Source: a bacterium
GTDB lineage: Bacteria; Patescibacteriota; Saccharimonadia; CAILAD01; GCA-016700035
Direction: 5' to 3'
Assembly: GCA_016700035.1 (NCBI GenBank)
Contig: CP064998.1
Location: 398,790 to 462,789, forward strand
Length of the DNA stretch: 64,000 nucleotides
Shown here: one piece after another, positions 1 through 16,900 of the stretch
How the letters are laid out: every line of letters starts with the position of its first letter
Position numbering within the stretch: the stretch's first letter is position 1
Program-made: the position numbers and the translations under genes
The notes under the pieces: model-generated
Databases searched by the model: none
What the model was told of the DNA's origin: nothing
The model's input: only the letters and a program-made list of their open reading frames with translations

Positions 1-2084
1 AGCAAGTATTGGTTGCGCTCTCGAGATTGACTGTGCTGGACCCTGCTTGTGGATCCGGTGCTTTCCCTATAGGTGTTCTACAGAAAATCGTATATGTACT
101 GCAGCAACTTGATACTGAGGCAAGATACTGGCTGGACAGTCAGCTTTCTAGCGCTACGCCAGAACTCAGAAGACATCTAGAGGAGCAATATACTAATAAA
201 AATTTCGATTATCTCAGAAAATTAGGGGTTATAAGGGAGAGTATATATGGTGTCGACATACAGCCTATTGCGGTTGAAATTGCAAAACTACGCTGCTTCC
301 TGACTCTCATTGTGGAAGAAAAAGTTGACGATGACTTGCCCAACCGAGGTATCGAGCCCTTGCCAAATCTAGATTTTAAATTTGTTTGTGCAAACTCACT
401 CGTTCAACTTCCTGTACACGGCGCGAAGTCTAGTTCAAAGCAACAGCAGCAAATATTTGAAGATACGTCACATATAGATCAGCTTAAAGATATACGAAAC
501 AAGTACTTTGGGGCAACCGCGATGGAGCGACTAGAGCTGCAAAGTAAGTTTAATGCATTGCAGACAGAGATGGCCCTAAAGAACATAGATGAATACAAGG
601 GAGCGGCATCTAGGCTATATAATTCACTTACACGCTGGAAACCCTTTGAGCATAATATGGTTGATTGGTTTGACGCAGAATGGATGTTTGGCATACCCGA
701 TTTTGATATTGTTATTGCCAACCCACCGTATCTTGGAGAAAAAGGCCATAAAGAACTATTTAGAAAGATTCGAGAAGATGGGTTGAAGGATTATTACATG
801 GGAAAAATGGATTTGTTCTATTTCTTCTTCCATCTGGCCATCAATCTTAATCGAGATGGAGGTGTCACCACGTTCATCACCACAAACTATTATCCAACAG
901 CGAGTGGAGCTAAAAAGCTACGTAAAGATATCTTTGAACGTACTCAGATTAGAGAATTAATCAACTTCAACGAACTAAAGATATTTGAGTCAGCTCTTGG
1001 CCAGCACAATATGATAACTGTTCTTGAGAAGTGTAAGGATGACCAGCCTACCTTAATTACAATGGCGCAATCAGGTGGTCTAGCTGGGGCAGATACTCTA
1101 GCGCAGTTGTTAGCTAAGGATTCACCCATAGCAACTTACAGTGCTAATTCAAAGGATGATCTCTTTGACGAAGATGATTATTCGATCAGATTTAGTGGCG
1201 ACGATACAGAAGGGTCTTCTGCTGCTGACTTGGTATTGTCAAAGATAAAAAATAACCAATACGCACTTGAGCACGTCGCATCAATCAATCAGGGGCTCCT
1301 ATCAGGCGCCGACACAGTAACAAAAAAACATAAAGAAAAATTTGACTTGGTAAGTGAGGCTGGAGATGGAATATTTGTCCTAGATGCTACAAGAAGAACC
1401 GACGCTGAAGTGCTTGAAAGTTTCACGCCCAAAGAATTACAATTCGTACATCCATTTTACAAAAACTCAAATATCTATAAGTATTCGTGTGATACCGAAC
1501 CCACTAAGTTTGTGATTTACCTTTCAAGGACAGACGGTATCGATGGTCTCCCGAATATAGCAGCGCATTTGCATAAATTCAAAGCCCTACTGACGAATCG
1601 CCTTACAACGTATAACGAGAGCTACCCATGGTATTCTCTGCACCGAGCTCGTGAACGTTCAATCTTTGAATCTGAAAAGATCATGGTACCCTACCGTTCT
1701 AAAACAAATGTTTTTGGGTACACAAATGAGCCATGGTACTTCCGAACCGATGCCTATTCGGTCATTACGAAAAACAGTGAATACCCACTAAAGTACTTAT
1801 TGGGTATACTTAATTCAAAACTTGCACTATTTTGGTTATATAACAGAGGTAAGCGTAAAGGAGACACTCTTGAACTCTTCTACGATCCACTGTCAAAAAT
1901 TCCAATAGCCAGCTGCTCTGAAGATCAGCAGAAAATGATAATAGCATTAGTTGATGAAATAATTGTGGAAAGATCAAAAGATTCAAGAGCAGATACGCAT
2001 GATACCGAGCAACGCGTTGACCAATTAATTTATGAGATATACGGTCTTACTGACGAAGAGATATCCATAGTCGAGAGCTCGTGA
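1..2084 (+). CDS. Eco57I/MmeI-family N6-adenine DNA methyltransferase (type IIG/IIL restriction-modification or PglX-like), 5' partial at window edge
   Basis: Frame is open to position 1 (TTG at 9 is not a real start). SAM-binding motif I 'VLDPACGSGAF' near the N-terminus. Catalytic motif IV 'NPPY' (IANPPYLGEKG). Long C-terminal target-recognition-like region. Confidence 0.8.
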   Translation, partial: QVLVALSRLTVLDPACGSGAFPIGVLQKIVYVLQQLDTEARYWLDSQLSSATPELRRHLEEQYTNKNFDYLRKLGVIRESIYGVDIQPIAVEIAKLRCFLTLIVEEKVDDDLPNRGIEPLPNLDFKFVCANSLVQLPVHGAKSSSKQQQQIFEDTSHIDQLKDIRNKYFGATAMERLELQSKFNALQTEMALKNIDEYKGAASRLYNSLTRWKPFEHNMVDWFDAEWMFGIPDFDIVIANPPYLGEKGHKELFRKIREDGLKDYYMGKMDLFYFFFHLAINLNRDGGVTTFITTNYYPTASGAKKLRKDIFERTQIRELINFNELKIFESALGQHNMITVLEKCKDDQPTLITMAQSGGLAGADTLAQLLAKDSPIATYSANSKDDLFDEDDYSIRFSGDDTEGSSAADLVLSKIKNNQYALEHVASINQGLLSGADTVTKKHKEKFDLVSEAGDGIFVLDATRRTDAEVLESFTPKELQFVHPFYKNSNIYKYSCDTEPTKFVIYLSRTDGIDGLPNIAAHLHKFKALLTNRLTTYNESYPWYSLHRARERSIFESEKIMVPYRSKTNVFGYTNEPWYFRTDAYSVITKNSEYPLKYLLGILNSKLALFWLYNRGKRKGDTLELFYDPLSKIPIASCSEDQQKMIIALVDEIIVERSKDSRADTHDTEQRVDQLIYEIYGLTDEEISIVESS

Positions 2085-2165
2085 TGAATACGATGACCTA
2101 TAGGAAAAGTTGCACCAATGCAAATTCCATACTTTTGAATTCAGACGCTGTTTTAAAGAGTGATA

Positions 2166-3137
2166 ATGCAAAGACTTTCTAGGCAATGTAAGTCCCTCTT
2201 GGAAAAGTCGCAAGACTCTGCACTACAAGCTGTGTCTACTTATAACGATCCGCGAAGCATCTTTAGGGCGGGTAACTTTACTGTTTTGATGACTATAGCC
2301 TGGACCTCTCTAATGCATGCATACTTCGAAAAACATAAGATAAATTACTACTACAAAAAAAGTAACGGTCGATATGAATACATTGATGGCGACAAAGCAA
2401 CATGGGACCTTCAGCAGTCTCTCAAAAAGGTTTTCGAAGAGAATGATCCTGTTAGGAAGAATGTTGAATTATTCATAAAGTTGAGGAATAAGGTTGAGCA
2501 CAGAAACCTACCGTCACTTGACCAGTTTGTTTTGGGCGAATGCCAAGCATTAGTACTAAATTACGAGACTTGGCTAGTTAACGAATTTGGAAAAGGATCA
2601 TCAATTATCGATACTATGTTTGTGCCTATCCAGCTTTCTAGCAGTAGAAGAACTTTACCTAAGTCGAAACTCGAGCGGGATGTGATTAGTTTTGTTAAAG
2701 ATTACCGAAATCTACTAAGCGTAGATGTTGTTAATTCGCAAAAGTATGAGTTCAAGGCATTCTTTGTGCCTAAGATTGGGAACCATCGTAATTCGTCTGA
2801 TCTAGCGATCGAGTTTGTCAGATACGACGAGACCAATAAAGAAGAGATGGAAAAATACGACAAGGCCATCATTGCAATTAAAGAAAAAGGTGTCCCGGTC
2901 GCCAATGCTGATAGATATAAGCCCACAAAAGTTCTCGAAAAAATTAATGAGCTTAGTAAAAAGAAAAAGAATATGGCATGGCACACATCAATGTGGCAGA
3001 AATATAAAGTCAGGCCAAATGGTAGCGCTTCAAACAAGATTGGCTGCAAGACAGAGTATTGTGTCTATGACTCCCCGCATAGTGACTATGTGTATACGCA
3101 AAAATGGATCGATTTGTTACTGGAAAAGGAGGTTTGA
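2166..3137 (+). CDS. Hypothetical protein with an Rx4H (HEPN-like) motif 'LRNKVEHRN'; possible abortive-infection/RNase-type defence protein
   Basis: ORF with ATG at 2166 and AAGAG 6 nt upstream. Its TGA overlaps the ATG of the next gene (TGATG at 3135-3139). The motif assignment is inference only. Confidence 0.45.
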   Translation: MQRLSRQCKSLLEKSQDSALQAVSTYNDPRSIFRAGNFTVLMTIAWTSLMHAYFEKHKINYYYKKSNGRYEYIDGDKATWDLQQSLKKVFEENDPVRKNVELFIKLRNKVEHRNLPSLDQFVLGECQALVLNYETWLVNEFGKGSSIIDTMFVPIQLSSSRRTLPKSKLERDVISFVKDYRNLLSVDVVNSQKYEFKAFFVPKIGNHRNSSDLAIEFVRYDETNKEEMEKYDKAIIAIKEKGVPVANADRYKPTKVLEKINELSKKKKNMAWHTSMWQKYKVRPNGSASNKIGCKTEYCVYDSPHSDYVYTQKWIDLLLEKEV

Positions 3138-4606
3138 TGAATATATCTAAATCTGACTACCTAAAATACCTCATCTGCCCTAGCTATCTTTGGCTATGGA
3201 AGAACAAACCCGAGGTTGTGCCAACTGATGAAGATGAAGCTATCAAACAGCGCCTTGAGCAAGGTAACGAGATTGAGCGCTACGCTCGACTTCTGTTCCC
3301 CGAAGCTGAGCTCGTTATCTCGCATGGAGCAACCGCTAAGGTCGATACTGAAAAACTTGTAGCTAGCGGCGCCGAAACTATCTTCCAGGCTACGGTTATT
3401 ACAAACGAAGGCTTGCTTGCCATGGCCGACATCATCACTCGAGAAGATACTTCAGATACCTGGACGCTATACGAAGTTAAATCAACCAACTCTATCAAAA
3501 AAGAGCATATTCTCGACCTTTCTTTTCAGCGCGTTGCCTTTGAAGACGCCGGCTACACTATTGGTAAAGTTAAGATCATCTATCTCAATAAGGACTACAA
3601 GCGTCGTGCCACTGTTGTCCCCGATGATCTGTTGATGGAGTCAGATGTTACAAAAGAGGTCGCCGAACTGGTTGAAACCGTCCGCGCTCAGACCCGTGAC
3701 GCTCTGGAATATCTTAAGAAAACCGACGAACCGAACGGCTGTAGTTGCCGGCTCAATTCAAGATCTAAACATTGCCCAACATTCCACTACCTTAACCCAG
3801 ACATCCCAGAATATTCGGTATTTAATATCAGCAGAATAAACGGCAAGAAGCTGGCACTGCTTATAGATAATGACATTGTTAATGTTCACGACGTGCCGGA
3901 AGACATAAAGCTATCACTAATCCAACAGAATCAGGTTGATGCTGAGAAAACTAAGCAGCCAAAGATAGACAAAGCCGCTATCGCAGAGGTATTGAGCGAA
4001 CTTGAATACCCATTGTACTTTCTCGACTATGAGACGGTATCTACCGCACTCCCCCTATACGAAAACTGTAAGCCCTATCAACAGATACCATTTCAGTATT
4101 CACTGCATGTTTTAAAGGAGCCTGGCGCTACCTTGGAGCATTATGAGTACCTTTCTCATGACTCAACCACTTTGCCAGCGCACGAGCTCTTAAGTAACCT
4201 TAAGCAGCAAATTGGACCGAGCGGCAGCGTCATCACCTGGAATAAGTCGTTTGAAATGGGTAGAAATCGTGAAATGGCCGAGCAATATCCTGAATTTGCT
4301 GGTCTCATGAACAGTATCAATGACAGAGTCTTTGATTTGATGGAGATATTCAGTAAACAGCACTTTGTTCATCATAAGTTCAAGGGCAGTAGCTCGATTA
4401 AGAAAGTGCTTCCCGTGCTGGTTGATGGGTTTAGCTATGACGATATGGATATATCCAATGGCCAAGCAGCGGCGCTACGCTGGTACGAGGCAGTGACGTC
4501 GGATGATACTGAGCTAGCCAGCAAGACGTATGAGTCACTCCTTGAATATTGTAAGCTAGATACACTTGCTATGGTTGAGATATATAAAACTCTCAAAAAT
4601 GTTTGA
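3137..4606 (+). CDS. DUF2779-like protein with an N-terminal Cas4/RecB-type PD-(D/E)xK nuclease signature and a Cys cluster
   Basis: GGAGG RBS before ATG 3137. N-terminus 'ISKSDYLKYLICPSYLWLWK' resembles DUF2779 starts. 'DIITRED...YEVKS' fits a D...ExK nuclease motif. Cys at 'ICPS' plus 'GCSCRLNSRSKHC' resembles the Cas4/AddB 4-Cys arrangement. Confidence 0.55.
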   Translation: MNISKSDYLKYLICPSYLWLWKNKPEVVPTDEDEAIKQRLEQGNEIERYARLLFPEAELVISHGATAKVDTEKLVASGAETIFQATVITNEGLLAMADIITREDTSDTWTLYEVKSTNSIKKEHILDLSFQRVAFEDAGYTIGKVKIIYLNKDYKRRATVVPDDLLMESDVTKEVAELVETVRAQTRDALEYLKKTDEPNGCSCRLNSRSKHCPTFHYLNPDIPEYSVFNISRINGKKLALLIDNDIVNVHDVPEDIKLSLIQQNQVDAEKTKQPKIDKAAIAEVLSELEYPLYFLDYETVSTALPLYENCKPYQQIPFQYSLHVLKEPGATLEHYEYLSHDSTTLPAHELLSNLKQQIGPSGSVITWNKSFEMGRNREMAEQYPEFAGLMNSINDRVFDLMEIFSKQHFVHHKFKGSSSIKKVLPVLVDGFSYDDMDISNGQAAALRWYEAVTSDDTELASKTYESLLEYCKLDTLAMVEIYKTLKNV

Positions 4607-4744
4607 CAGCACATCACACTTATGGTAATATCTAAGTTAGTATTTAATTCAGGAGAACATATAGATGATAAGAATCGCACGAGCAAAGTAGTCGCACAAG
4701 CGTCTTTTTTCGTATGATTCTTTCCTATTAGTTTAACTTCTTGT

Positions 4745-4798
4745 AAAAAAGCCGAGCACTTGCGTGACTACTCACCTGAATGCTCGGCTTTTTGTTTT
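4745..4798 (+). terminator. Rho-independent terminator hairpin (gccgagca...tgctcggc followed by a T-tract)
   Basis: Perfect 8-bp GC-rich stem at 4752-4759/4781-4788 followed by 'tttttgtttt'. Confidence 0.6.
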
Positions 4799-4808
4799 GG
4801 AGAAAACT

Positions 4809-6299
4809 ATGTTTAATCTATATAAAATTGCAAAATCATATAAAGATAACCCCGTTCTTAAAGATGTTACCCTGTCGGTTAAATCCGGTGAGGTAATTGC
4901 TCTTATTGGTGCCAATGGTGCTGGTAAGACCACGCTACTTAAGATTTTACTCGGCGAAGTTAAGTCGGATGAAGGACAGATTACAAATCATCATGATGTG
5001 ATCGGTTATATTCCGCAGGAGATGGACAATCTTACCAGTACTATCGAGGAAAGCTTCGGTTCTGTAGAGCCCTGGCGTATTGACTATGCCCTAAATCTGG
5101 TGGGCTTAGAGACTATATCTAAAGATGGATTTCTGGGTAACATGAGTGGTGGTCAAAAAACACGAGTTGCTGTTGCTCAGGTATTGGCTCAAGATCCAGA
5201 ACCAACAGTACTGCTACTAGATGAACCCACCAATAACCTTGACACCGAAGGACTTGATTGGCTTGAGGACTTTGTTAAACGCTTCAAAGGAGCGATTCTC
5301 TTCGTAAGCCACGACCGTCGCTTCATTAACGCTGTGGCAACAAAAGTTGTTGAACTCAAGGATGGGGTGACAAGACAATACGGTGGCAACTATGATTTTT
5401 ACAAAGAACAGAAAGATATTGAGCTTCAGGCTGCACTTGAGAAGTATGAAAAACAGCAAGAAGAAAAGAAGCGACTCAAGAAAGCGATGGTCGCGCAGAA
5501 AGAAGCTACCAAACATGTTCATGAGCACATTAAGCGTGCGGATAATGACAAGTACCAGCGTGACTTCTTTCGAAATAGAGTTTCGGTGAAACTAGGTCAG
5601 AAAGCCAAGAATATAGAAACAAGGCTGGATAAACTCGAAGAAGTCGAACGTCCTGAGTTCAGCGTGGGCTACAGGTTTAGTCTCGGTGGCTCAGTGCATA
5701 ACAGTAAGTTGCTTGTCGAGGTCGAAAATGTATCAAAGTCGTACGAAGACAACACGATTCTAAAGGACAATAATTTCGAGATTAGAGGAAATTCGCACAT
5801 ACACCTCAAAGGTCTAAACGGCTCAGGTAAATCTACTCTACTAAGGCTTATCGCTAAGCAACTTGAGCCCAGTTCTGGGGACATAACTTACGGTAGTGAT
5901 GTGACTGTCGGTTACTTCTCGCAGGATACTGAAGGTTTAGACTACGCAAAATCGGCGATAGATAACCTGAGTACATATGAGACAAATCAGGAAGCAGTGT
6001 ATAGACGGGCCCGAAGCCTAGGAATTGACGCAGAAAGTCTTCAGAAAATGCCAGCCGAGCTGTCTCGTGGGCAACAGTCAAAGCTGGCATTTGCAAAGTT
6101 GCTACTAGCTAACCATGATCTCCTAATATTGGATGAACCAACAAACCACCTTGATATCGCTACGAAAGAGCAGCTTGAAAATGCCTTGCAAAACTATGCC
6201 GGAGCAATACTGGTTGCCTCGCACGATGTATACTTCTTACAACAGCTACAAATAGACAAAACACTTAACCTAGTAGACGGAAAGGTAATAGAATCATGA
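4809..6299 (+). CDS. ABC-F family ATPase (two tandem ABC domains, no transmembrane domain; ribosome-associated or antibiotic-resistance-type)
   Basis: Two Walker A motifs ('GANGAGKTT', 'GLNGSGKST'). Two ABC signature/Walker B regions ('LSGGQKTR...LLLDEPTN', 'LSRGQQSK...LILDEPTN'). A charged KE-rich interdomain linker. GGAGAAAACT RBS before ATG 4809. Confidence 0.85.
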   Translation: MFNLYKIAKSYKDNPVLKDVTLSVKSGEVIALIGANGAGKTTLLKILLGEVKSDEGQITNHHDVIGYIPQEMDNLTSTIEESFGSVEPWRIDYALNLVGLETISKDGFLGNMSGGQKTRVAVAQVLAQDPEPTVLLLDEPTNNLDTEGLDWLEDFVKRFKGAILFVSHDRRFINAVATKVVELKDGVTRQYGGNYDFYKEQKDIELQAALEKYEKQQEEKKRLKKAMVAQKEATKHVHEHIKRADNDKYQRDFFRNRVSVKLGQKAKNIETRLDKLEEVERPEFSVGYRFSLGGSVHNSKLLVEVENVSKSYEDNTILKDNNFEIRGNSHIHLKGLNGSGKSTLLRLIAKQLEPSSGDITYGSDVTVGYFSQDTEGLDYAKSAIDNLSTYETNQEAVYRRARSLGIDAESLQKMPAELSRGQQSKLAFAKLLLANHDLLILDEPTNHLDIATKEQLENALQNYAGAILVASHDVYFLQQLQIDKTLNLVDGKVIES

Positions 6300-7234
6300 A
6301 ACACTACATTATTAACCTGGATGAAGCAAGAAGCTTCCTAGACAACCATCTCAAGTCAAAGACTAAAGATGTTGAGCTGCTAACTGGTGGTGACTGGTCT
6401 GCAGCCTACGCCTATCTGCATGACGGTAAAGAATATGTTATTCGATTTGCTGCCAGCAAAGAAGATTTCGAGAAAGACCAGAAAATTAGTAGCTACGCTA
6501 CACCCACGCTTCGTGTACCAAAGCTAGTTGAGATTGGAAAAGCGCTTCGAGGATATTTTGCGATTTCTGAGCGTAATCACGGAATATTTCTAGATGATCT
6601 AGATGGCGAACAGATGAAAAATACACTACCAAGTCTACTCGCGACTCTAGATGAAATTCGTACAATAGACCTCTCGGATACGAGTGGCTATGGCTCTTGG
6701 GAAGCCAAAGGATCAGCTAGCTATGCAACTTGGCAAGAATACTTGTTAGGTGGTTTTGAAGATAAACCAACCAATCGAGTAAGTGGATGGCGGAAGAAAT
6801 TAGAGTCATCACCAACGGGAGCGGAGTCTTTTGACAGCGTTAAGCTAGTGTTTGAGAAGCTACTTTGTGACTTGCCAGCTGATCGCTACCTTATTCACGG
6901 CGATCTTCTATATCGCAACGTTCTCGTACAAAATGACAGGATTGATGTGGTAATTGATTGGGGCAACTCTATGTACGGTGATTTTCTCTACGATATAGCA
7001 TGGTTGATCTACTGGTGGCCATGGTATCCAGAGTGGAAAGACATCGACATCATGCACGAGGTATTAGAACACTACAAAAAGATTGGGCTAAACATTCCGA
7101 ATATAGAGAATCGACTGTTATGTTATCAAGTCCATATTGGACTAGATGCACAGAAGTATGCTGCCTTCACTGAGCGTTGGGACATATTGGCGCAAAACAC
7201 TTCGCAGACTCTTGATCTTATCGACAAGATATAA
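6296..7234 (+). CDS. Aminoglycoside/macrolide phosphotransferase (APH) family kinase
   Basis: Catalytic loop 'HGDLLYRNVLV' (HGDxxxxN). Mg-binding 'VIDWGNSMYGDFLYD'. Its ATG overlaps the ABC-F stop (ATGA). Confidence 0.75.
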   Translation: MKHYIINLDEARSFLDNHLKSKTKDVELLTGGDWSAAYAYLHDGKEYVIRFAASKEDFEKDQKISSYATPTLRVPKLVEIGKALRGYFAISERNHGIFLDDLDGEQMKNTLPSLLATLDEIRTIDLSDTSGYGSWEAKGSASYATWQEYLLGGFEDKPTNRVSGWRKKLESSPTGAESFDSVKLVFEKLLCDLPADRYLIHGDLLYRNVLVQNDRIDVVIDWGNSMYGDFLYDIAWLIYWWPWYPEWKDIDIMHEVLEHYKKIGLNIPNIENRLLCYQVHIGLDAQKYAAFTERWDILAQNTSQTLDLIDKI

Positions 7235-7252
7235 AAGTGCTAAGATTGAGCT

Positions 7253-7669
7253 ATGAAAATATCAGATATATCTAATGCAGACTTTACCGCGGATACAGAA
7301 CCACGCGACGATTACCTGATAGAGCTTTTGAAACAAGCCTACACTGGTAAAATAACTTGCCGAATGGCTTTAGCAGATATGAGCGCTATAAAACCGTTCT
7401 CAGACTACAAGCCAACAGTTCACGAAGACTACCGCAAGTACTTCACTATTAAGGCTAGGGACGACGTTCCGCCAGGTCTACAGGTCTATGTAAAAGACGG
7501 AAAGCTTATCATGAGTGACGACTTTAACGCCTTTGCCATGTATAACGAACTTGGATTCGAGCGGGCTGTCTGTATTGTCTTAGGTGATACACCTGAGATT
7601 GATGGCGTTGAGTACCATGGCGATCCGTTTATAATGCCTCCTCCAACAGTAGAAGAGCTACCTGCATAG
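7253..7669 (+). CDS. Hypothetical protein; paralog of the interrupted gene at 8705-9124
   Basis: Clear amino-acid similarity to the 8705-9124 ORFs (e.g. 'ISDISNADFTADTEPRDDYLIELLKQAYTGKI' against 'ISDIQNAGFSDDTEPKDNRLIDLLKLAYTKKI'). Confidence 0.5.
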   Translation: MKISDISNADFTADTEPRDDYLIELLKQAYTGKITCRMALADMSAIKPFSDYKPTVHEDYRKYFTIKARDDVPPGLQVYVKDGKLIMSDDFNAFAMYNELGFERAVCIVLGDTPEIDGVEYHGDPFIMPPPTVEELPA

Positions 7670-7757
7670 AATATGCTACTATTGAAATGAATAGCTTGTG
7701 CGCCTTGCGAGAGGGCATGAGCTATTTTTGTAGTGATATAATACAGATAAGAAACCT

Positions 7758-7958
7758 ATGAGTAATAAATCAGCAGCAAAACTAGTTAAAGATGCTCGAA
7801 TCTCTAAAGGCCTGACTCAAACTGAGCTTGCCGAGAAAACCAGCGTGCATTCAAATACCATCGCCAAGATTGAACAGGGCATCCAGCAGCCTTCCTACCC
7901 GACTATCAAGAAGCTATCTAAAGTACTCGATATAGACATCAACGACTTTCCAGAGTAG
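7758..7958 (+). CDS. XRE-family helix-turn-helix transcriptional regulator
   Basis: HTH_3 signature 'LTQTELAEKTSVHSNTIAKIEQG'. 66 aa. Confidence 0.75.
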   Translation: MSNKSAAKLVKDARISKGLTQTELAEKTSVHSNTIAKIEQGIQQPSYPTIKKLSKVLDIDINDFPE

Positions 7959-8415
7959 CTAGCTTATCAAGCTTGGTAAAATGTAGCATCTGAAGAGCAA
8001 GGCTATCGGAGAACGTTCGGCGCATAATCTCGCAACTATCGCCCTGAGATAGAATGTTTAAGCTACCTTCCCAAAGTATTTCTTCGTCAATTATGGCCAG
8101 TTTACGATGATGTTTGACGGTGTAGAGTACTTTTATGCCAATATCCTGCATTGACGCTACGGCATTCTCTGCTTGGATAGCATATTCTTCGTTATGCTCC
8201 TCTGGGCTCCTTGTATTCACTACTATCCTTACACCCTTACGGCGCAACTTTTTCAGTATCGGCAACAGGTGCTCCATCCTCCTCCTGGTTATGAAGGGGC
8301 TTTCTATGATTACAGATTGCTTTGCATGTTTTAAGTCGCGCTCAAATGCTTTATAGAAGGTGTTGTTATCAAAGAGGGATGAGTTATTCATCATCAGCCT
8401 CCTTGGTTTCCTCAT
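7939..8415 (-). CDS. Phospholipase D-like (HKD) domain nuclease, Nuc/BfiI-like
   Basis: HKD motif 'HHRKLAIIDEEILWEGSLN' (HxKx4D...GSxN). Small single-HKD protein, convergent with the XRE gene. Confidence 0.7.
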   Translation of the reverse strand: MRKPRRLMMNNSSLFDNNTFYKAFERDLKHAKQSVIIESPFITRRRMEHLLPILKKLRRKGVRIVVNTRSPEEHNEEYAIQAENAVASMQDIGIKVLYTVKHHRKLAIIDEEILWEGSLNILSQGDSCEIMRRTFSDSLALQMLHFTKLDKLATLESR

Positions 8416-8704
8416 CGAGTAGTTCTCGAATCTCTTCTACATCGACAATTTGGTCATCATCCTGGATCGAAAAAGTTCTATTAAGGAACCTTCGCCCCAG
8501 CCAAAACTTGCACCAAACATGATCTGAATGGTTCACATCTTGCCCAAGAAGGTACGAACGAATTGTTAGTCTAAAATTCTGGTTGAAAGGCTGGTTTTTT
8601 TAGTTTGAATCCTTGTTGGTGCCCTAATCTGTTCAAACCTGGGACTAGAACCATGAAGAATGTATAATGAGGCCATGGATGACAACTCAAAGCAAGACCA
8701 AAAG

Positions 8705-9124
8705 ATGGTAAACATTTCTGATATTCAGAACGCTGGGTTTTCTGACGATACAGAGCCAAAGGATAACCGCCTCATAGATCTACTCAAGCTTGCTTATACA
8801 AAGAAGATTTACTGCCGTACTGTAATTGTAGCTATCGATAACGTCGTTCCGTTTTCTGATTATGTACCGAGTATAAGTGAAGATTAAGTTAAATACTTCA
8901 AAGACAAGTATCAAGCTGGTAGACCACCTGGAATGCTAGTGCATCAACGGGATGACGGCAAGTTCGTCATGTGCGATGATTACAATTCGTATTTTATGTA
9001 CAAGCAAGTAGGTGCTGATAATGTGACTTGCCAAGTGCTTGATGCCGAAAAAGCGCCCGAAAACGTCATTGAAGCAAGTGATCCATATTATATGGAGTTG
9101 CCTAGTGTGGAGCAGATTAACTGA
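8705..9124 (+). pseudogene. Paralog of 7253-7669 interrupted by an in-frame TAA at 8885-8887
   Basis: The ORFs 8660-8887 and 8933-9124 are in the same frame. The codon aligned to Tyr in the paralog ('HEDYRKYF') is TAA here ('SED*VKYF'). Probable start is 'MVNISDIQ' at 8705. Confidence 0.55.
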
Positions 9125-11283: not shown

Positions 11284-11943
11284 CTAGGTTTTGAGCAGAC
11301 CAAGCAATGAGAGTAGCATCGTAGTTGGGGTGGAGAGGCCAGATGGATTTGGCGTATAAGATTCATCGACGGGATATCCTAGTACTGACGACATCATAAT
11401 CCAAAAATCATCCTTTTCTTGTTGAGTCCATTGGCTATAAGACTTACCTAGCTGTATTTCATTATAAGTAATAAAAACTTGCACTGTGTCACCAAACATA
11501 CCCTGCAAGCTTGCTACATTACTTACGTTCCAGTTAGCTAGTGATTGGTCAAAGCTCGTTGTGCTAGAAAACATGCCTTGCATTTCTATTGCACTGCTAA
11601 CATCCCAATTATTAAGGGGCTGGTTGAAGTCAGTAGCACCTGCAAACATACCATTCATACTGGTTACGCTGCCAACATTCCAGTCATTTAAAGGTTGGTT
11701 GAAGGTATCGGCTTTAAAAAACATACTGATCATATCTGTCACATTGCCAACATTCCAGTTATTTAAAGGTTGGTTGAATCTAGTATAAGCAAACATACCT
11801 CCCATATCTGTCACATTGCCAACATCCCAGCTATTTAAGGGCTGGTTGAAGGCGCTACTTTGCATAAACATACCGTCCATCCTGGTTACATTGCTGACAT
11901 TCCAATTATTTAGGGGGTTGATTGAAGGCGCTGCTTTGTGCAA
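11284..11943 (-). CDS. Giant sensor kinase copy 1, middle segment (DUF285-type repeats), out of frame relative to its flanks
   Basis: Matches the copy-2 protein in frame. It is separated from the flanking segments by G4-versus-G5 and G5-versus-G4 homopolymer differences at 11327-11330 and 11914-11918. Confidence 0.6.
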   Translation of the reverse strand: MHKAAPSINPLNNWNVSNVTRMDGMFMQSSAFNQPLNSWDVGNVTDMGGMFAYTRFNQPLNNWNVGNVTDMISMFFKADTFNQPLNDWNVGSVTSMNGMFAGATDFNQPLNNWDVSSAIEMQGMFSSTTSFDQSLANWNVSNVASLQGMFGDTVQVFITYNEIQLGKSYSQWTQQEKDDFWIMMSSVLGYPVDESYTPNPSGLSTPTTMLLSLLGLLKT

Positions 11944-14900
11944 ACATAAATCTCATATCTGTCACATTGCCAACATCCCAGCTATTTAAGGGCTGGTTGA
12001 AGGCGCTGCTTTGTGTAAACATATATTGCATGCCTGTTACATTGCTGACATCCCAATTATTTAGTGGTTGATTGAAGCTAGTACCACCTGCAAACATACC
12101 TTCCATATTTGTTGAATTGCTGACATCCCAATTATTTAGTGGTTGATTGAAGCTAGTACCACCTGCAAACATACCTTCCATATTTGTTGAATTGCTGACA
12201 TCCCAATTATTTAGTGGTTGATTGAAGCTAGTACCACCTGCAAACATACCACTCATATCTATAACATTACTGACATCCCAATTATTTAAGGGCTGGTTGA
12301 ATGAACCTGCTTCCGTGAACAAATTTGATACATCGGTAACATTACTAACATCCCAATTTTCAATATTAGAATTAAAACTTGATGCCCCTTCAAACATACT
12401 AACCATGCCTGTTACCTGACTTAAGTCTGGCGTATCAGTGGCAGTAAAAGTTGTTATATTCGTAGCGTTGTAAAACATGCTACTCATATCTTGCCACTCA
12501 ATATCGCCCCATTGTTTGACGTCTATAATCTTTTCTTGATCACCATTACTAGATTGATACATGTGTGGGAAGGTGCCAGTTATGGCAATGTCATATTCAC
12601 CGGCAGAACCATAGGTACAAGTTACGTTACCGGTTTGATTGGAGTGTTCTGGGGTACCATCGTTATTACAATCTACGTTGTAGTTATATGTGTAGTTGCC
12701 ATTAGTAGGAATGGTGTATTGGTTATTGTTACTAATGCCGGGGTTATCGGTTTTGACTCGCATGATGAAAGGATCTTGAGGGCAGCTTTCTCCACTATCG
12801 TTGATTGTCCAGCTAAAGTTGGTGATGATGCTTTGGCGTTGAGCTTCAGCATTACAGTATTTGCTAGTGCCAGCATCAAAAATAACTGAGCTTTCTAGGT
12901 TTTGAGCAGACCAAGCAATGAGAGTAGCGTCATAGTTGGGAGTGGATAGACCAGAGCTATCAGGCATAAAGCCGTTAAAGTCCCCAAACATATTGTTCAT
13001 GTCTGTTACGTTCGATAAATCCCAGGTTTCTAAAGACTGATCAAAAGAAGATGCACCAGCAAACATAATTTGCATATCAGTGACATTGCTCGTATCCCAG
13101 CTGTTTAAACTCTGATTAAACGATGAAGCTCCGGCAAACATACCTTGCATAGTAGTCGCATTACTAACATCCCAATTATTCAGTGGCTGATTGAATGAAG
13201 TTGCAAGAGCAAATATACCTAACATATTAGTTACGTTGTTCACGTTCCAGTTATTAAGTGGTTGATTGAACGAGGTAGCGTTAGTAAACATCTGTTCCAT
13301 ACTTGTTACATTACTGGTGTCCCAATTATCCAATGGTTGGTTAAATGGAGACGGGTTATTCATATACTCATCATAAAACATAAGATCCATGTTTATGACA
13401 GCACTTGTATCCCAACTATTGATGGGCTGGTTGAACGCATGAGCATCTAGGAACATACCTCTCATTATTGTTACATTACTTACGTCCCAGTTATCCAATG
13501 GCTGATCAAACGAGTCCGTAAAAGTAAACATTAGTTCCATGCTCATCACATTACTTACGTCCCAGTTATTAACGTCAGAATCAAATAAAGTAGCACGTTC
13601 GAACATTCTGCTCATATCCACCACTTCACTAAGGTCTGGCGTATCGCTAGCTGTAAATATTGTTATACCTGATGCACCCATAAACATACCGCTCATGCTT
13701 TGCCATTCAATATCACCCCACTGCTTGACGTCAATTATTTTTTCTTGATCACCAACTGCCTGTATCATATGCGGGAAGGTACCAGTTATGGCAATGTCGT
13801 ATTCTCCAGCTGAGCCGTAGGTACAAGTTACGTCACCGGTTTGGTTGGTGAATTCTGGAGTCCCATCGTTATTGCAATCTACATTGTAATTATAAGAATA
13901 ATCAATTGTGTTGGTGGGTATAGTATATTGATTGCTGTTGCTAGTGCCCGGGTTGTCGGTTTTAACTCTCATGATGAAAGGATCTTGAGGGCAGGCACTG
14001 GTTGCGAAGGTCTGGTCTTGGCCATAGCTAGTACCATTATTATTTGCAGCATAAGCACGATAGTGGTATGTTGTGCCACAAGTAAGCCCACTTATATTAG
14101 CAGTTATTGTCCCAACATAACGCTTCAGCCTATAACCTAAGTTGTCTTGGATGTAGAGATTACCGTTAGGACTAAATGCAAGATCATGCGGGAATGTAAA
14201 TTCTGTTAGCCCTGGGCCACCACTACCGAACTGCGATATGTAAAAGCCATTACTGCTAAACTTTTGGACACGGTGATTAAAGAAATCCATAACATAGACA
14301 TTGCCGTCTTTGTCAATTGCTGCATTGCTTGGATGGTTGAGTTGCCCATCACCGGTACCATAACTACCCCACTTGGTAACGAAAACTCCGCTAGAATTAA
14401 ATTTTTGGATTCGGTGATTGTTGGTATCAGCTACATATATATATCCACTAGAATCAACGGTGACACCATGAGGATTTGCAAACTGCCCATTACCGTTACC
14501 ATTACTGCCAAATTTCATTAAAAAGCTACCGTTGGCATCGAATTTCTGAATACGATGATTATCTTGATCGGCTACATATATATTGCCACTGGTGTCAAAC
14601 GTAATACCAGCAGGTGTACTAAACTGCCCGTCTCCTGCGCCATTTGTACCAAATTGCGACAAGTATGTGCCACTAGAATTAAACTTCTGGATTCTGTGAT
14701 TTTGTGAATCAGCTACATAAATATTACCGGAACTATCAATAGATACATCATCTGGGGCATTTAATTGCCCATTACCGCTACCAAATGTGCCAAACTTCAT
14801 TAAAAAGTTACCGTCGGCATCGAATTTTTGGATTCTGTGATTTGCCGAATCAGCTACATACACATTGCCACTAGAGTCTGTAGCAACACCATAAGCAAAA

Positions 14901-16900
14901 CCAAATTGCCCATTACCGCTACCTTGTGAACCATATGTAGTTATTGTTGAGCTACTATCAGTAGCTGTTGAGCCATAGCTGTTGGTTGTGCCATATTGAA
15001 ATCCTCGGGCAGTAATACTATCTGGCGAGGTAACACCGTTTAGGGTAGCGGATACATCTGTAATATTTGTTGCCGAATTAGTGCTAACTTGAGGTGCGCG
15101 AGTAGAAGCACAGTCTTGCCCGCCATCAATAATTGTCCATGAGTGGTTAGTTATAATGCTTTGACGTTCTGCAGCTGAAGTACAGTATTTTCTGCTGAAG
15201 GCATTAAGATGGACTCCATTTTTTAGATTTTGTGATGACCAGCCAATAAGAGTCGCGTCATAGTTGGCGACAGAAAGGGCAGTGTAATTAAGCATGTCAT
15301 ACATACCTGTTGTGCCGGTTACATTACTAACATCCCAAGCCGCAAGTGATTGATTAAATGAGCTGGTATTTTTGAACATGCCATACATAAACGTTATGTT
15401 GCCCGTATTCCAATTGTTTAGCGGTTGATTGAATGAAGATGCCCCACTAAACATTGAATCAGTATTAGTAACATGACTCACATCCCAATTGTTTAGCGGT
15501 TGGTTGAATGATGTAGCATTCTTAAATGCATTACCCATATAAGTAACATTGCCCGTATTCCAATTGTTTAGCGGTTGATTAAATGCTGATGCTCCTGTAA
15601 AAATACCGCCTATACTAGTAACACTGCCCGTATTCCAATTGTTTAGCGGCTGGTTGAATGAAGAGGCCCCACTAAACATAACGCTCATACTAGTAACATT
15701 TCCTACATCCCAATTATCTAGTGGTTGATTAAATGATGTAGCATTATAAAATGATGCCCACATACTAGTAACATTTCCTACATCCCAATTGTTTAGAGGT
15801 TGATCAAAGGCGCTAGCACCATAAAACATACTATTCATATCCGTCACATTGCTCACATCCCAGCTATTTAATGGCTGATTAAAAGATGATGCTCCATTAA
15901 AAACACTATGTATGCTGGTAATATGACTTACATCCCAGTGATTTAAGTTTGAGTTTAGGTTTGTGCTATTTGCAAACATCGTATCCAAGCTTGTTAATAA
16001 TGAGAAATCTGGAGCATCTATTGCAGCAACTGAAAGATTTGCACATCCCATAAATGCATATTCCATTGATGCCCATGCATTAGTGCTCCACTGCTCAACA
16101 GTGAGTATTTTTTGCCTATCGCCACCGTTGTTAAATGCAATTCTCGGAAACGTTCCTGTAATACTTACTGTGTACGTACCGGTACTAGCGTAGGTATGTG
16201 TAGAGTTCCCTGTTAGACCAGTACTAGTATTGCCATCACCCCAGTCAACATTATAGTTGTAGCCACCACCAGTAGTTGGAATCGTAATTTGGTTTGGCCC
16301 ACTAACGCCCGGATTATCCGTCTTCCAAGTAGTCACAAACTCCCCCGGCGCCCAATCTCCATTGTAAGTAACTGAATTGTCGGTTGAAGTACTAACTTGG
16401 TTAGTGCCACTAGCTATGTTCTGAGCTGTAATCACTTCTTGAGCGATGGTTGGGGTGATTGTACCAGCTCCAGTGGCTTGAATACGTACTTCATAAGTTG
16501 TTTTGTTGAAGGTTCCAGCTTCAGTAATAGATTGGATTGCTTGCCCAGGAGCTGTACCAGCTAGAGTGATGTCGGTATTAGTAAAAGTAGACTCATCAAT
16601 AGCTTCATTGAATTGTACGGTAAAGACAGAAGTATAGGAGGGGTTAGCATCAGGGGTACCAGTCTTTTGATCTATTGATACAGTTAAGCTACCCGGTGCT
16701 GCCTTACCGCCATGCTTATCGTTATATAGTCCAGCGTATAAAAAACTAATTAAGGTAATCGCAATAGCCGATAAGAAGATGAAGAGTCTTTGACCTGAAG
16801 TAATATTAAGCCGTTGTTTTAACTTCTTCTTAGAACGACGCCGGTGTTCAGCCTTATCTACAGCATCAGTAACAGACTTCTTATTGCTCATAGGATCCAA
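11906..16900 (-). CDS. Giant sensor kinase copy 1, N-terminal segment (signal-anchor, Ig-like region, DUF285-type repeat blocks, NHL propeller)
   Basis: N-terminus 'MDPMSNKKSVTDAV...RRSKKKLKQ' plus TM 'LFIFLSAIAITLISFLY'. Many 'FNQPLNNWDVSNVTxMxxMF' repeats (Mycoplasma DUF285/PF03382 type). Six 'YVADxxNHRIQKF' NHL repeats. Confidence 0.7.
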   Translation of the reverse strand: MDPMSNKKSVTDAVDKAEHRRRSKKKLKQRLNITSGQRLFIFLSAIAITLISFLYAGLYNDKHGGKAAPGSLTVSIDQKTGTPDANPSYTSVFTVQFNEAIDESTFTNTDITLAGTAPGQAIQSITEAGTFNKTTYEVRIQATGAGTITPTIAQEVITAQNIASGTNQVSTSTDNSVTYNGDWAPGEFVTTWKTDNPGVSGPNQITIPTTGGGYNYNVDWGDGNTSTGLTGNSTHTYASTGTYTVSITGTFPRIAFNNGGDRQKILTVEQWSTNAWASMEYAFMGCANLSVAAIDAPDFSLLTSLDTMFANSTNLNSNLNHWDVSHITSIHSVFNGASSFNQPLNSWDVSNVTDMNSMFYGASAFDQPLNNWDVGNVTSMWASFYNATSFNQPLDNWDVGNVTSMSVMFSGASSFNQPLNNWNTGSVTSIGGIFTGASAFNQPLNNWNTGNVTYMGNAFKNATSFNQPLNNWDVSHVTNTDSMFSGASSFNQPLNNWNTGNITFMYGMFKNTSSFNQSLAAWDVSNVTGTTGMYDMLNYTALSVANYDATLIGWSSQNLKNGVHLNAFSRKYCTSAAERQSIITNHSWTIIDGGQDCASTRAPQVSTNSATNITDVSATLNGVTSPDSITARGFQYGTTNSYGSTATDSSSTITTYGSQGSGNGQFGFAYGVATDSSGNVYVADSANHRIQKFDADGNFLMKFGTFGSGNGQLNAPDDVSIDSSGNIYVADSQNHRIQKFNSSGTYLSQFGTNGAGDGQFSTPAGITFDTSGNIYVADQDNHRIQKFDANGSFLMKFGSNGNGNGQFANPHGVTVDSSGYIYVADTNNHRIQKFNSSGVFVTKWGSYGTGDGQLNHPSNAAIDKDGNVYVMDFFNHRVQKFSSNGFYISQFGSGGPGLTEFTFPHDLAFSPNGNLYIQDNLGYRLKRYVGTITANISGLTCGTTYHYRAYAANNNGTSYGQDQTFATSACPQDPFIMRVKTDNPGTSNSNQYTIPTNTIDYSYNYNVDCNNDGTPEFTNQTGDVTCTYGSAGEYDIAITGTFPHMIQAVGDQEKIIDVKQWGDIEWQSMSGMFMGASGITIFTASDTPDLSEVVDMSRMFERATLFDSDVNNWDVSNVMSMELMFTFTDSFDQPLDNWDVSNVTIMRGMFLDAHAFNQPINSWDTSAVINMDLMFYDEYMNNPSPFNQPLDNWDTSNVTSMEQMFTNATSFNQPLNNWNVNNVTNMLGIFALATSFNQPLNNWDVSNATTMQGMFAGASSFNQSLNSWDTSNVTDMQIMFAGASSFDQSLETWDLSNVTDMNNMFGDFNGFMPDSSGLSTPNYDATLIAWSAQNLESSVIFDAGTSKYCNAEAQRQSIITNFSWTINDSGESCPQDPFIMRVKTDNPGISNNNQYTIPTNGNYTYNYNVDCNNDGTPEHSNQTGNVTCTYGSAGEYDIAITGTFPHMYQSSNGDQEKIIDVKQWGDIEWQDMSSMFYNATNITTFTATDTPDLSQVTGMVSMFEGASSFNSNIENWDVSNVTDVSNLFTEAGSFNQPLNNWDVSNVIDMSGMFAGGTSFNQPLNNWDVSNSTNMEGMFAGGTSFNQPLNNWDVSNSTNMEGMFAGGTSFNQPLNNWDVSNVTGMQYMFTQSSAFNQPLNSWDVGNVTDMRFMFAQSSAFNQPPK
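12061..12250. repeat. Perfect 75-bp (25-codon) tandem repeat, about 2.5 units, inside copy-1 DUF285 block
   Basis: The unit 'ttagtggttgattgaagctagtaccacctgcaaacataccttccatatttgttgaattgctgacatcccaatta' restarts at 12061, 12136 and 12211. It encodes 'FNQPLNNWDVSNSTNMEGMFAGGTS' repeated. Confidence 0.8.

Follow-up and report, generated by a model that had tools for sequence, protein, structure and literature searches.

Positions 1–4606 of a 64,000-nucleotide (nt) stretch of a Candidatus Saccharibacteria chromosome (the window) make up the 3' portion of an operon of four co-directional genes, the first of which, encoding a PLD-SNF2 protein, lies outside the window. The three open reading frames (ORFs) inside it are co-oriented on the plus strand and encode, in this order, a methyltransferase (ORF1), a HEPN-motif protein of the DUF3644 family (ORF2) and a DUF2779 protein (ORF3). 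Comparison with related strains reveals that this juxtaposition represents one among many states of the cargo in a defence slot that has DUF2779 as its fixed right-hand gene, and that the first three genes of the operon (PLD-SNF2, methyltransferase and DUF3644) are strain-variable cargo. The best explanation, to which we assign a probability of roughly 0.62, is that a swappable restriction-modification (R-M) slot carries cargo that here includes an autonomous DUF3644 protein, and that DUF2779 is a lineage-conserved, non-obligate neighbour. The first-pass annotation had described a defence-island-like trio and proposed a possible uncharacterised two-gene abortive-infection or anti-phage module, composed of ORF2 and ORF3. 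The island is supported; the module is not, as ORF2 belongs to the known DUF3644/PDC-S19 family, which usually occurs without DUF2779, and DUF2779 usually occurs without DUF3644. The features of the locus are as follows:

3..2084, plus strand: methyltransferase ORF1, C-terminal 693 of 1121 amino acids (aa); runs off the window start
2085..2165, plus strand: spacer of 81 nt between the methyltransferase and HEPN genes
2166..3137, plus strand: DUF3644/PDC-S19 HEPN protein ORF2, 323 aa (Pfam, PADLOC)
3135..3139, plus strand: TGATG stop/start overlap of ORF2 and ORF3
3137..3790, plus strand: DUF2779 protein ORF3, N-terminal Cas4/MGME1/AddB-like PD-(D/E)xK nuclease domain
3791..4606, plus strand: DUF2779 protein ORF3, linker and C-terminal DUF2779/RNase H-like DEDDy 3'-5' exonuclease domain
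4746..4798, plus strand: strong hairpin and U-run, GCCGAGCA...UGCUCGGCUUUUUGUUUU (inverted repeat and fold energy)

The two co-oriented genes 3' of the methyltransferase overlap as the first-pass annotation described, the TGA of ORF2 (3135–3137) and the ATG of ORF3 (3137) sharing one base, and an AAGGAGG sequence lies 5 nt 5' of this ATG. For ORF2, the ATG at 2166 is a likelier start than the GTG at 2160. Overlaps occur in 7 of the 38 co-oriented neighbouring gene pairs of the 64-kb window, and 13 of the 38 are at most 20 nt apart; the TGATG overlap is therefore weak evidence of the joint function that had been read from it. A search for terminator-like sites between the three genes returned one weak match, inside ORF3, and no other. 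A consensus scan found a weak promoter-like site in the spacer (TTCAGA-16-GATAAT, 2140–2167); because shuffled sequence yielded more such sites than the scanned sequence, it provides no evidence of function. The hairpin at 4746–4798 (−28.4 kcal/mol, z = −5.66 by fold computation), just 5' of the ribosome-binding site of the next gene, which encodes an ABC-F protein, is likely the terminator of the defence operon and possibly an attenuator of the ABC-F gene. No att-like direct repeats were found around the island in positions 1–9000.

A defence slot with swappable cargo

Many homologues of the DUF2779 protein are 60–98% identical to it and are encoded on near-complete Saccharimonadales contigs of 0.7–0.96 Mb. 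At the nucleotide level, loci L091, L092 and L093 align to the window from position 3146 onward only. In strains whose DUF2779 is 90–97% identical and whose downstream genes are approximately 100% identical, the DNA upstream of position 3146 is entirely different. Identity in L092 is 75–82% up to approximately position 3600 and then 99%, a jump that marks a recombination junction inside the DUF2779 gene. Instead of this cargo, related strains carry genes of type I, type III or other type IIG systems, GmrSD, Ppl or NYN genes, or none at all, with the following arrangements directly upstream of DUF2779:

L101, L102: MmeI-like type IIG enzyme, then an unrelated 327/328-aa protein, upstream of DUF2779
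L096: HsdR, then a Ppl-like ATPase, upstream of DUF2779
L128: type III Mod/Res, then a Ppl-like ATPase, upstream of DUF2779
L130: Mod-NYN-Res upstream of DUF2779
L132: SNF2, a 296-aa protein, Mod, a 255-aa protein and Res upstream of DUF2779
L127: GmrSD upstream of DUF2779
L092, L093: divergent 196-aa gene upstream of DUF2779
L094, L095: no island; 5' end of DUF2779 lost

The left flank of the slot consists of trbC/trbL pilin genes of a type IV secretion system (T4SS; seen in L134, L089 and L127) and the right flank of DUF2779. Saccharibacteria are episymbionts with tiny genomes, and a clear defence hot-spot lies between the T4SS pilin genes and the nuclease gene, where otherwise near-identical strains exchange eight or more distinct cargoes of restriction or abortive-infection genes. 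The hot-spot itself is of a known, textbook kind, in an unusual host. In distant lineages of the candidate phyla radiation (CPR), the DUF2779 gene is located between iscS-like, dsbA-like, cupin or terC genes and pheS, pheT or gyrB genes. A divergence gradient of DUF2779 was considered as a sign that the gene travels with the island, and was rejected because the far flanks (the genes of a 138-aa protein, a helix-turn-helix protein plus a PLD nuclease) are equally divergent, at 72–87% identity.

At the exact position of DUF3644, loci L101 (9015–9998) and L102 (9009–9995) encode the 327/328-aa protein. It is not a DUF3644 protein and gave no PADLOC match; the L102 form displays a weak match to HEPN_RiboL-PSP (1.3e-4) that the L101 form does not, and the protein may be another uncatalogued R-M-attached effector. 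The ATPases of L128 (4335–7004, 889 aa) and L096 (3205–6003, 932 aa) match the PADLOC Ppl model with E-values of 1e-39 and 2e-28, respectively, and that of L128 also has a weak N-terminal PHP match. Their genes reach the start of DUF2779 with a 4-nt overlap in L128 and a 5-nt gap in L096.

Neighbourhoods of DUF3644 and DUF2779 genes

The first-pass annotation had made conservation of the gene pair as neighbours in other genomes a check on the two-gene module. We sampled 80 DUF3644 loci from many phyla, one genome per species, including as much as 10 kb of flanking sequence to either side, and found DUF2779 in one of them (L009, in divergent orientation). Conversely, DUF3644 was found in none of 37 metagenomic DUF2779 loci, and the pair is, for the most part, not conserved elsewhere: apart from the window lineage, L089 and L009 alone showed it. 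The homologue counts are more than 6000 for DUF2779 versus 97 for DUF3644.

The closest homologue of ORF2 (78% identity) is encoded by the last gene of an operon with SNF2 and type III Mod/Res, which it overlaps by 8 nt at Res, and no DUF2779 lies beside it. The next-closest (72% identity), in L089, follows Mod-DUF6119-Res and precedes a DUF2779 gene whose product is 38% identical to that of the window, in the same DUF3644-DUF2779 order and with a 4-nt overlap. In these closest homologues, the Res stop codon overlaps the DUF3644 start. A Pfam scan of the immediate DUF3644 neighbours (71 upstream and 72 downstream) identified DNA methyltransferases as the dominant class, with approximately 27 of the 143 (Eco57I, 8; N6_N4, 4 + 3; C5, 1; D12, 6; DUF1156, 5), in addition to five ResIII proteins (three upstream, two downstream) and one DUF2779 protein. 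On a Rhodococcus plasmid, too, a methyltransferase gene lies directly 5' of DUF3644. That methyltransferases are the commonest immediate neighbours supports the candidate defence role of DUF3644.

T4SS genes recur near these loci. In L086 (9290–13958), TraG-, VirB4- and CHAP-type genes adjoin the DUF3644-bearing type III operon, and the window itself encodes, at 60122–62716 on the minus strand, an ATPase resembling T4SS coupling proteins, with matches to TraG, TrwB and HerA. Defence cargo repeatedly adjoins T4SS genes in the window lineage.

The restriction unit

ORF1 contains motif I (GSGAF, nt 51–65) and motif IV (NPPY, nt 720–731), and matches Pfam Eco57I (1.5e-32), TaqI_C (4.3e-15), MmeI_Mtase (2e-08) and also N6_Mtase, in agreement with its first-pass assignment to the Eco57I/MmeI family. 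The PADLOC model REase_MTase_IIG is matched as well (4.8e-53), over profile positions 731–1245 of 1247 only. These matches identify ORF1 as a predicted gamma-class N6-adenine DNA methyltransferase of the MmeI/Eco57I family with a TaqI-like target-recognition domain. The identical full-length form of the protein, P0218 (1121 aa; source name 'Candidatus Saccharibacteria bacterium'; found on contigs as long as 916 kb), contains MmeI_hel, DUF7814 (weak), MmeI_Mtase, Eco57I and TaqI_C domains. Regarding a fused nuclease, type IIG profiles align with the N-terminal part of P0218, which has no match to MmeI_N; its candidate nuclease motif, D..FEVT, lacks the lysine. The methyltransferase thus shares MmeI_hel, MmeI_Mtase, Eco57I and TaqI_C with type IIG enzymes of the MmeI/Eco57I kind, but differs from them in that an N-terminal nuclease motif is not evident.

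In loci L134–L136 a 1081-aa PLD(HKD)-SNF2 helicase is encoded upstream of the methyltransferase, with a 4-nt overlap between the two genes, and divergent trbC/trbL-type T4SS pilin genes lie 5' of the helicase gene. The helicase matches the PADLOC model 'HKD+Snf2' (3.7e-42) and DrmD. The restriction unit is probably a two-gene, R-M-like system of PLD-SNF2 protein and methyltransferase, which together would restrict unmethylated DNA. Class 1 DISARM combines a DrmD SNF2 protein, a DrmMI methylase and a DrmC PLD protein; the PLD-SNF2 protein matches DrmD and the methyltransferase matches DrmMI, but DrmA and DrmB are absent from the window-type system, and in L134 only the PLD-SNF2 gene and the methyltransferase gene lie between trbC and DUF3644.

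The DUF3644 HEPN protein

ORF2 matches Pfam DUF3644 (PF12358) with an E-value of 1.7e-47 and 161.8 bits versus a gathering cut-off of 27.6; the alignment encompasses residues 13–184 and profile positions 2–181 of 183. Its match to the PADLOC PDC-S19 model PDLC04950 (3.5e-121) extends over residues 3–323 and profile positions 1–330 of 353, and six more PDC-S19 models also match. The RNKVEH sequence (nt 2484–2501), which the first-pass annotation took for the Rx4H motif of HEPN proteins, comprises R107 and H112, both invariant in 26 sequences of 26–78% identity; conservation of N108 and E111 is 90% or higher. For ORF1, ORF2 and ORF3 alike, the family matches at profile level argue that the motif calls were not chance. 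ORF2 is predicted on this basis to be a HEPN-motif protein, a new member of an already known candidate defence family.

The protein consists of an N-terminal helical HEPN domain (residues ~6–141) and a conserved C-terminal half (residues ~185–323). The family comprises 2763 clusters at 50% identity (E ≤1e-3), most of which cover the whole 330-position profile; the C-terminal half is therefore integral to DUF3644 proteins. The AlphaFold2 (AF2) model has a mean predicted local distance difference test (pLDDT) value of 81.6 and places long helices around RNKVEH, and residues 201–246 fall below a pLDDT of 50 despite the near-invariant P202, K203, D212, E216 and K239. PF18740 (EC042_2821, restriction endonuclease (REase)-like) is matched by 3 of the 26 homologues (best E-value 1.2e-4) and not by ORF2 itself; the C-terminal half of the family may be a cryptic nuclease-like domain. 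A profile search against PDB sequences returned no solved relative of the DUF3644 or the DUF2779 family.

DUF3644 was recognised in 2013 as a HEPN family overlapping 'EC042_2821' and present in R-M operons, and REase fusions were listed for the EC042_2821/DUF3644 family in the same survey (Anantharaman et al., PMC3710099). Payne et al. drew the PDC candidates from genes lying inside type I R-M, BREX and DISARM systems, and incorporated them into PADLOC; PDC-S19 is named in neither the text of that paper nor the supplements examined. No published test of PDC-S19 was found, and it stands as a bioinformatic candidate. ORF2 resembles the PDC-S19/DUF3644 proteins in its full-length match, the invariant Rx4H motif and its location at an R-M operon's 3' end; where PDC-S19 calls for attachment to an R-M, BREX or DISARM system, the ORF2 gene lies 3' of a methyltransferase gene. 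The window member differs by its CPR host and by the PLD-SNF2/type IIG-like methyltransferase pair upstream, and places the PDC-S19/DUF3644 HEPN protein in a CPR genome.

Two validated or recently described systems were compared with ORF2. HEC-08 of E. coli ECOR52 is a validated anti-phage HEPN protein in which the motif histidine is essential (bioRxiv 10.1101/2024.01.29.577857). Like ORF2, it is a single-gene, defence-embedded HEPN protein, with an N-terminal DUF3644 domain according to its authors and an essential RNxxxH motif, but the E. coli protein yielded no Pfam DUF3644 match in our scan and its C-terminus is zinc-finger-like. Orthology was ruled out: comparison with the HEC-08 gene, taken from the paper's supplement and E. 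coli genomes, gave a BLASTP E-value of 3.1 and an hhalign probability of 0.2% over 17 columns, with no homology detected outside the motif. Ishtar (2026 preprint) denotes single-gene HEPN proteins (DUF4145 or DUF3644) reported to clear plasmid RP4. These, too, have an N-terminal HEPN domain and an uncharacterised C-terminal domain and lie near defence genes, and the window locus also adjoins T4SS genes. ORF2 aligns in the RNxxEH motif alone (hhalign probability 14.8%, 15 columns, against nine sampled family sequences of 172–261 aa that do not include Ist1 and Ist2 themselves), and these sampled sequences do not support equating it with Ishtar.

In the preferred reading, DUF3644 would act as an autonomous, R-M-attached single-gene module that provides a second line of defence. 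Its Rx4H site most likely cleaves RNA once an invader escapes or disturbs restriction, and this cleavage would lead to growth arrest or loss of the invader, as for PrrC in principle and HEC-08 and Ishtar in phenotype. PrrC and RloC, which reside in type I R-M operons, share this working model of an R-M-attached HEPN RNase as a second line, but carry a fused ABC ATPase and come from a HEPN family other than DUF3644.

The DUF2779 protein

ORF3 (489 aa) begins with ISKSDYLKYLICPSYLW at residues 3–19 and contains D98, a YEVK motif (residues 112–115) and four cysteines, Cys14 and C202-x-C204-x8-C213, all of which are in line with the first-pass description of a DUF2779 protein with a 'D...YEVK' motif and a Cas4-like cysteine cluster. 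Residues 294–420 match Pfam DUF2779 (PF11074) with an E-value of 2.6e-42 and 144.5 bits versus a cut-off of 23.3; a weak RNase_H_2 match extends over residues 350–486, and a Cas_Cas4 match is also weak. The Cas4-type site (D98, E113, K115, Q131) and a DEDDy site of the pattern D297-x-E299, D400, Y471-x3-D475 are both invariant in 23 sequences down to 34% identity, and the four cysteines are invariant in 41 close DUF2779 homologues. The AF2 model (pLDDT 88.8, predicted template modelling score 0.83) was matched by Foldseek to MGME1 and Cas4 SSO0001 with a probability of 1.00 and to AddB with 0.89; matches of the fold to the DEDD exonucleases ERI2 and Pan2 are weak. ORF3 is therewith predicted to be a DUF2779 protein in which a Cas4/MGME1-like nuclease with a four-cysteine cluster is fused to a DEDDy exonuclease.

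ORF3 has the D...ExK triad of Cas4, its RecB-like fold and its arrangement of one cysteine near the N-terminus and three towards the C-terminus. The curated Cas4 cut-offs are missed (TIGR00372, 25.5 versus 65 bits; PF01930, 20.2 versus 22.7), as is that of NCBIfam UU173 (71.3 versus 225 bits). The PADLOC check suggested by the first-pass annotation was positive for ORF2, as PDC-S19, and gave only weak Cas4 matches for DUF2779, for which there is no model beyond these. ORF3 has no association with cas1/cas2 or a CRISPR array in the 64-kb window, in which no CRISPR-like array or Rfam CRISPR match was found; no cas gene is among the ten larger window genes scanned.

DUF2779 has been placed in clade F.17 of the 3'-5' exonucleases, with fusion to DUF83 noted (Majorek et al., PMC3985635), and MMSYN1_0389 of JCVI-syn3.0 is a quasi-essential DUF2779 protein with a Cas4-like and DEDDh/y fusion (PMC13621843). 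ORF3 shares with MMSYN1_0389, solo-Cas4/MGME1/AddB and TM0106-type RecB-like nucleases the Cas4-like PD-(D/E)xK and DEDD(y/h) domains and the same catalytic residues. It retains all four cluster cysteines versus two in the mycoplasma protein and, unlike known DUF2779/Cas4-like proteins, is encoded by the fixed last gene of swappable restriction operons. The protein would be expressed as the last gene of whichever operon fills the slot, and most likely degrades or resects linear DNA ends of both polarities, with the Cas4-like domain acting as 5' nuclease and the DEDDy domain as 3'-5' exonuclease. The residual novelty of the locus sits in DUF2779 alone, which is widespread, uncharacterised and quasi-essential in mycoplasmas.

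DUF2779 is also carried by plasmids of Campylobacterota, Cyanobacteriota, Bacillota, Rhodothermota and Pseudomonadota. The order ATP-binding protein-DUF2779-WYL is common to Rhodoferax and Diaphorobacter plasmids, whose ATPases are 55% and WYL proteins 63% identical; in Sphingobium, a homologous ATPase (32–33% identical) and a WYL gene lie beside DUF2779 in a rearranged order. This ATPase-DUF2779-WYL set may be an uncharacterised WYL-regulated system. A common ATPase partner of DUF2779 across phyla was considered and rejected, since the Ppl-like ATPases of CPR and the plasmid ATPases are not detectably related by BLASTP. The plasmid ATPase/DUF2779/WYL loci are:

L142, 3851–8465
L146, 2736–7470
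L147, 2498–6479

Alternative explanations

Several observations weigh against the reading of an autonomous DUF3644 cargo beside a non-obligate DUF2779 neighbour. In every cargo variant, the last upstream gene lies 0–6 nt from the ATG of DUF2779 or overlaps it, a tight coupling that a passive flank of a hot-spot would not predict. The DUF2779 gene is 5'-truncated or frameshifted in the island-less L094 and L095, and on the plasmids it lies near QatC/TatD, dGTPase, WYL, PLD, NERD or large ATPase genes in 8 of the 9 contexts inspected, a small sample biased towards accessory genes. The adjacency of DUF3644 and DUF2779 recurs in L089 and L009, with DUF2779 proteins 38–39% identical to that of the window, and structure searches did not recover a HEPN match for ORF2. 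The truncated forms (L094, 9023–10351; L095, 971–2299; P0121, 394 aa) lack the first 47–92 codons, and in L095 the gene is additionally split into ORFs of 267 and 116 aa. Eight contigs, the longest of 942 kb, record the truncated DUF2779, which rules out an assembly accident.

The best-surviving alternative, which we regard as doubtful, is that DUF2779 itself takes part in defence, as a common terminal effector that is co-expressed with any restriction module lying upstream and degrades the linear DNA from these modules in a RecBCD-like manner. It would possibly feed nucleotide salvage, with DUF3644 and DUF2779 in one pathway and no specific pair. Saccharibacteria-type hosts seem to have neither RecBCD nor de novo nucleotide synthesis. 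The tight 3' coupling of the gene to at least eight different upstream operons, the position of the terminator only after DUF2779, the plasmid neighbours together with the ATPase-DUF2779-WYL cassette, the damaged genes of island-less strains and the two intact nuclease sites would all fit such a role. On the other side, L092 and L093, likewise without an island, retain an intact 489-aa gene preceded by a spacer of its own, neighbours in other CPR lineages are housekeeping genes, the JCVI-syn3.0 homologue is quasi-essential (PMC13621843), PADLOC offers no model beyond weak Cas4 matches, and the plasmid contexts carry the sampling bias already stated. It is correspondingly unlikely that DUF2779 represents an unrecognised defence dual exonuclease, the constant and translationally coupled last gene of interchangeable restriction operons. 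If a functional link between DUF2779 and restriction were true, the DUF2779 family would gain a role.

We consider it improbable that DUF3644 is the nuclease partner of the adjacent methyltransferase, with a REase-like C-terminal DNase and the HEPN domain as an accessory. Methyltransferases, including solitary D12 and N6_N4 enzymes, are indeed the commonest immediate neighbours, and the PF18740 matches of three homologues, the nearly invariant D212, E216 and K239, and the REase fusions of the 2013 survey (PMC3710099) are consistent with this proposal. The window protein, however, has no PF18740 match, and its residues 201–246 are modelled with a pLDDT below 50; the operon already has a PLD nuclease fused to SNF2, type III contexts have a Res subunit, and it is the HEPN motif that supplies the invariant residues.

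Least probable, and very much so, is a dedicated, translationally coupled two-gene abortive-infection module of HEPN protein and DUF2779 beside the R-M system, which the TGATG overlap with its strong ribosome-binding site and the adjacencies in L089 (same order, 4-nt overlap) and L009 (divergent) would favour, and which the co-occurrence data (1 of 80 and 0 of 37 loci, and a 78%-identical DUF3644 homologue lacking DUF2779) largely refute, while near-identical strains exchange DUF3644 for unrelated genes, PDC-S19, HEC-08 and Ishtar are all single-gene systems, and overlapping genes are common in this genome.

Downstream genes and other features of the window

The ABC-F ATPase gene (4809–6299) encodes a protein sharing approximately 33% identity with plasmid-borne ABC-F proteins of the Msr ribosomal-protection type, and is overlapped by a gene for an APH-family phosphotransferase (6296–7234). 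Together with a leader, the two resemble a resistance pair of the msr/mph style. The block is approximately 100% nucleotide-identical in L092, L093, L095 and L130, whereas both flanks are 72–87% identical, which makes it an outlier; it is missing at the corresponding position in L132, L096 and L089. This combination of block identity, diverged flanks and patchy presence suggests that the block spread recently and horizontally among diverged Saccharibacteria. The leader and the conserved backbone genes that follow the block comprise:

4603–4631: promoter-like site of the ABC-F leader
4666–4692: AGGAGA and an 8-codon upstream ORF (MIRIARAK) of the ABC-F leader
7253–7669: 138-aa protein of unknown family, conserved backbone
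7758–7958: XRE-type helix-turn-helix gene, conserved backbone
7939–8415, minus strand: small PLDc_2 nuclease, conserved backbone

A second, disrupted paralogue of the 138-aa gene is present as two ORFs at 8660–8887 and 8933–9124. Further along the window, two giant predicted surface proteins of 1664 and 2448 aa are encoded on the minus strand at 11906–16900 and 19856–27202, respectively. The 1664-aa protein, the only one of the two that was scanned, contains DUF285, NHL and PKD repeats, and both genes display tandem repeats with a period of 75 nt.

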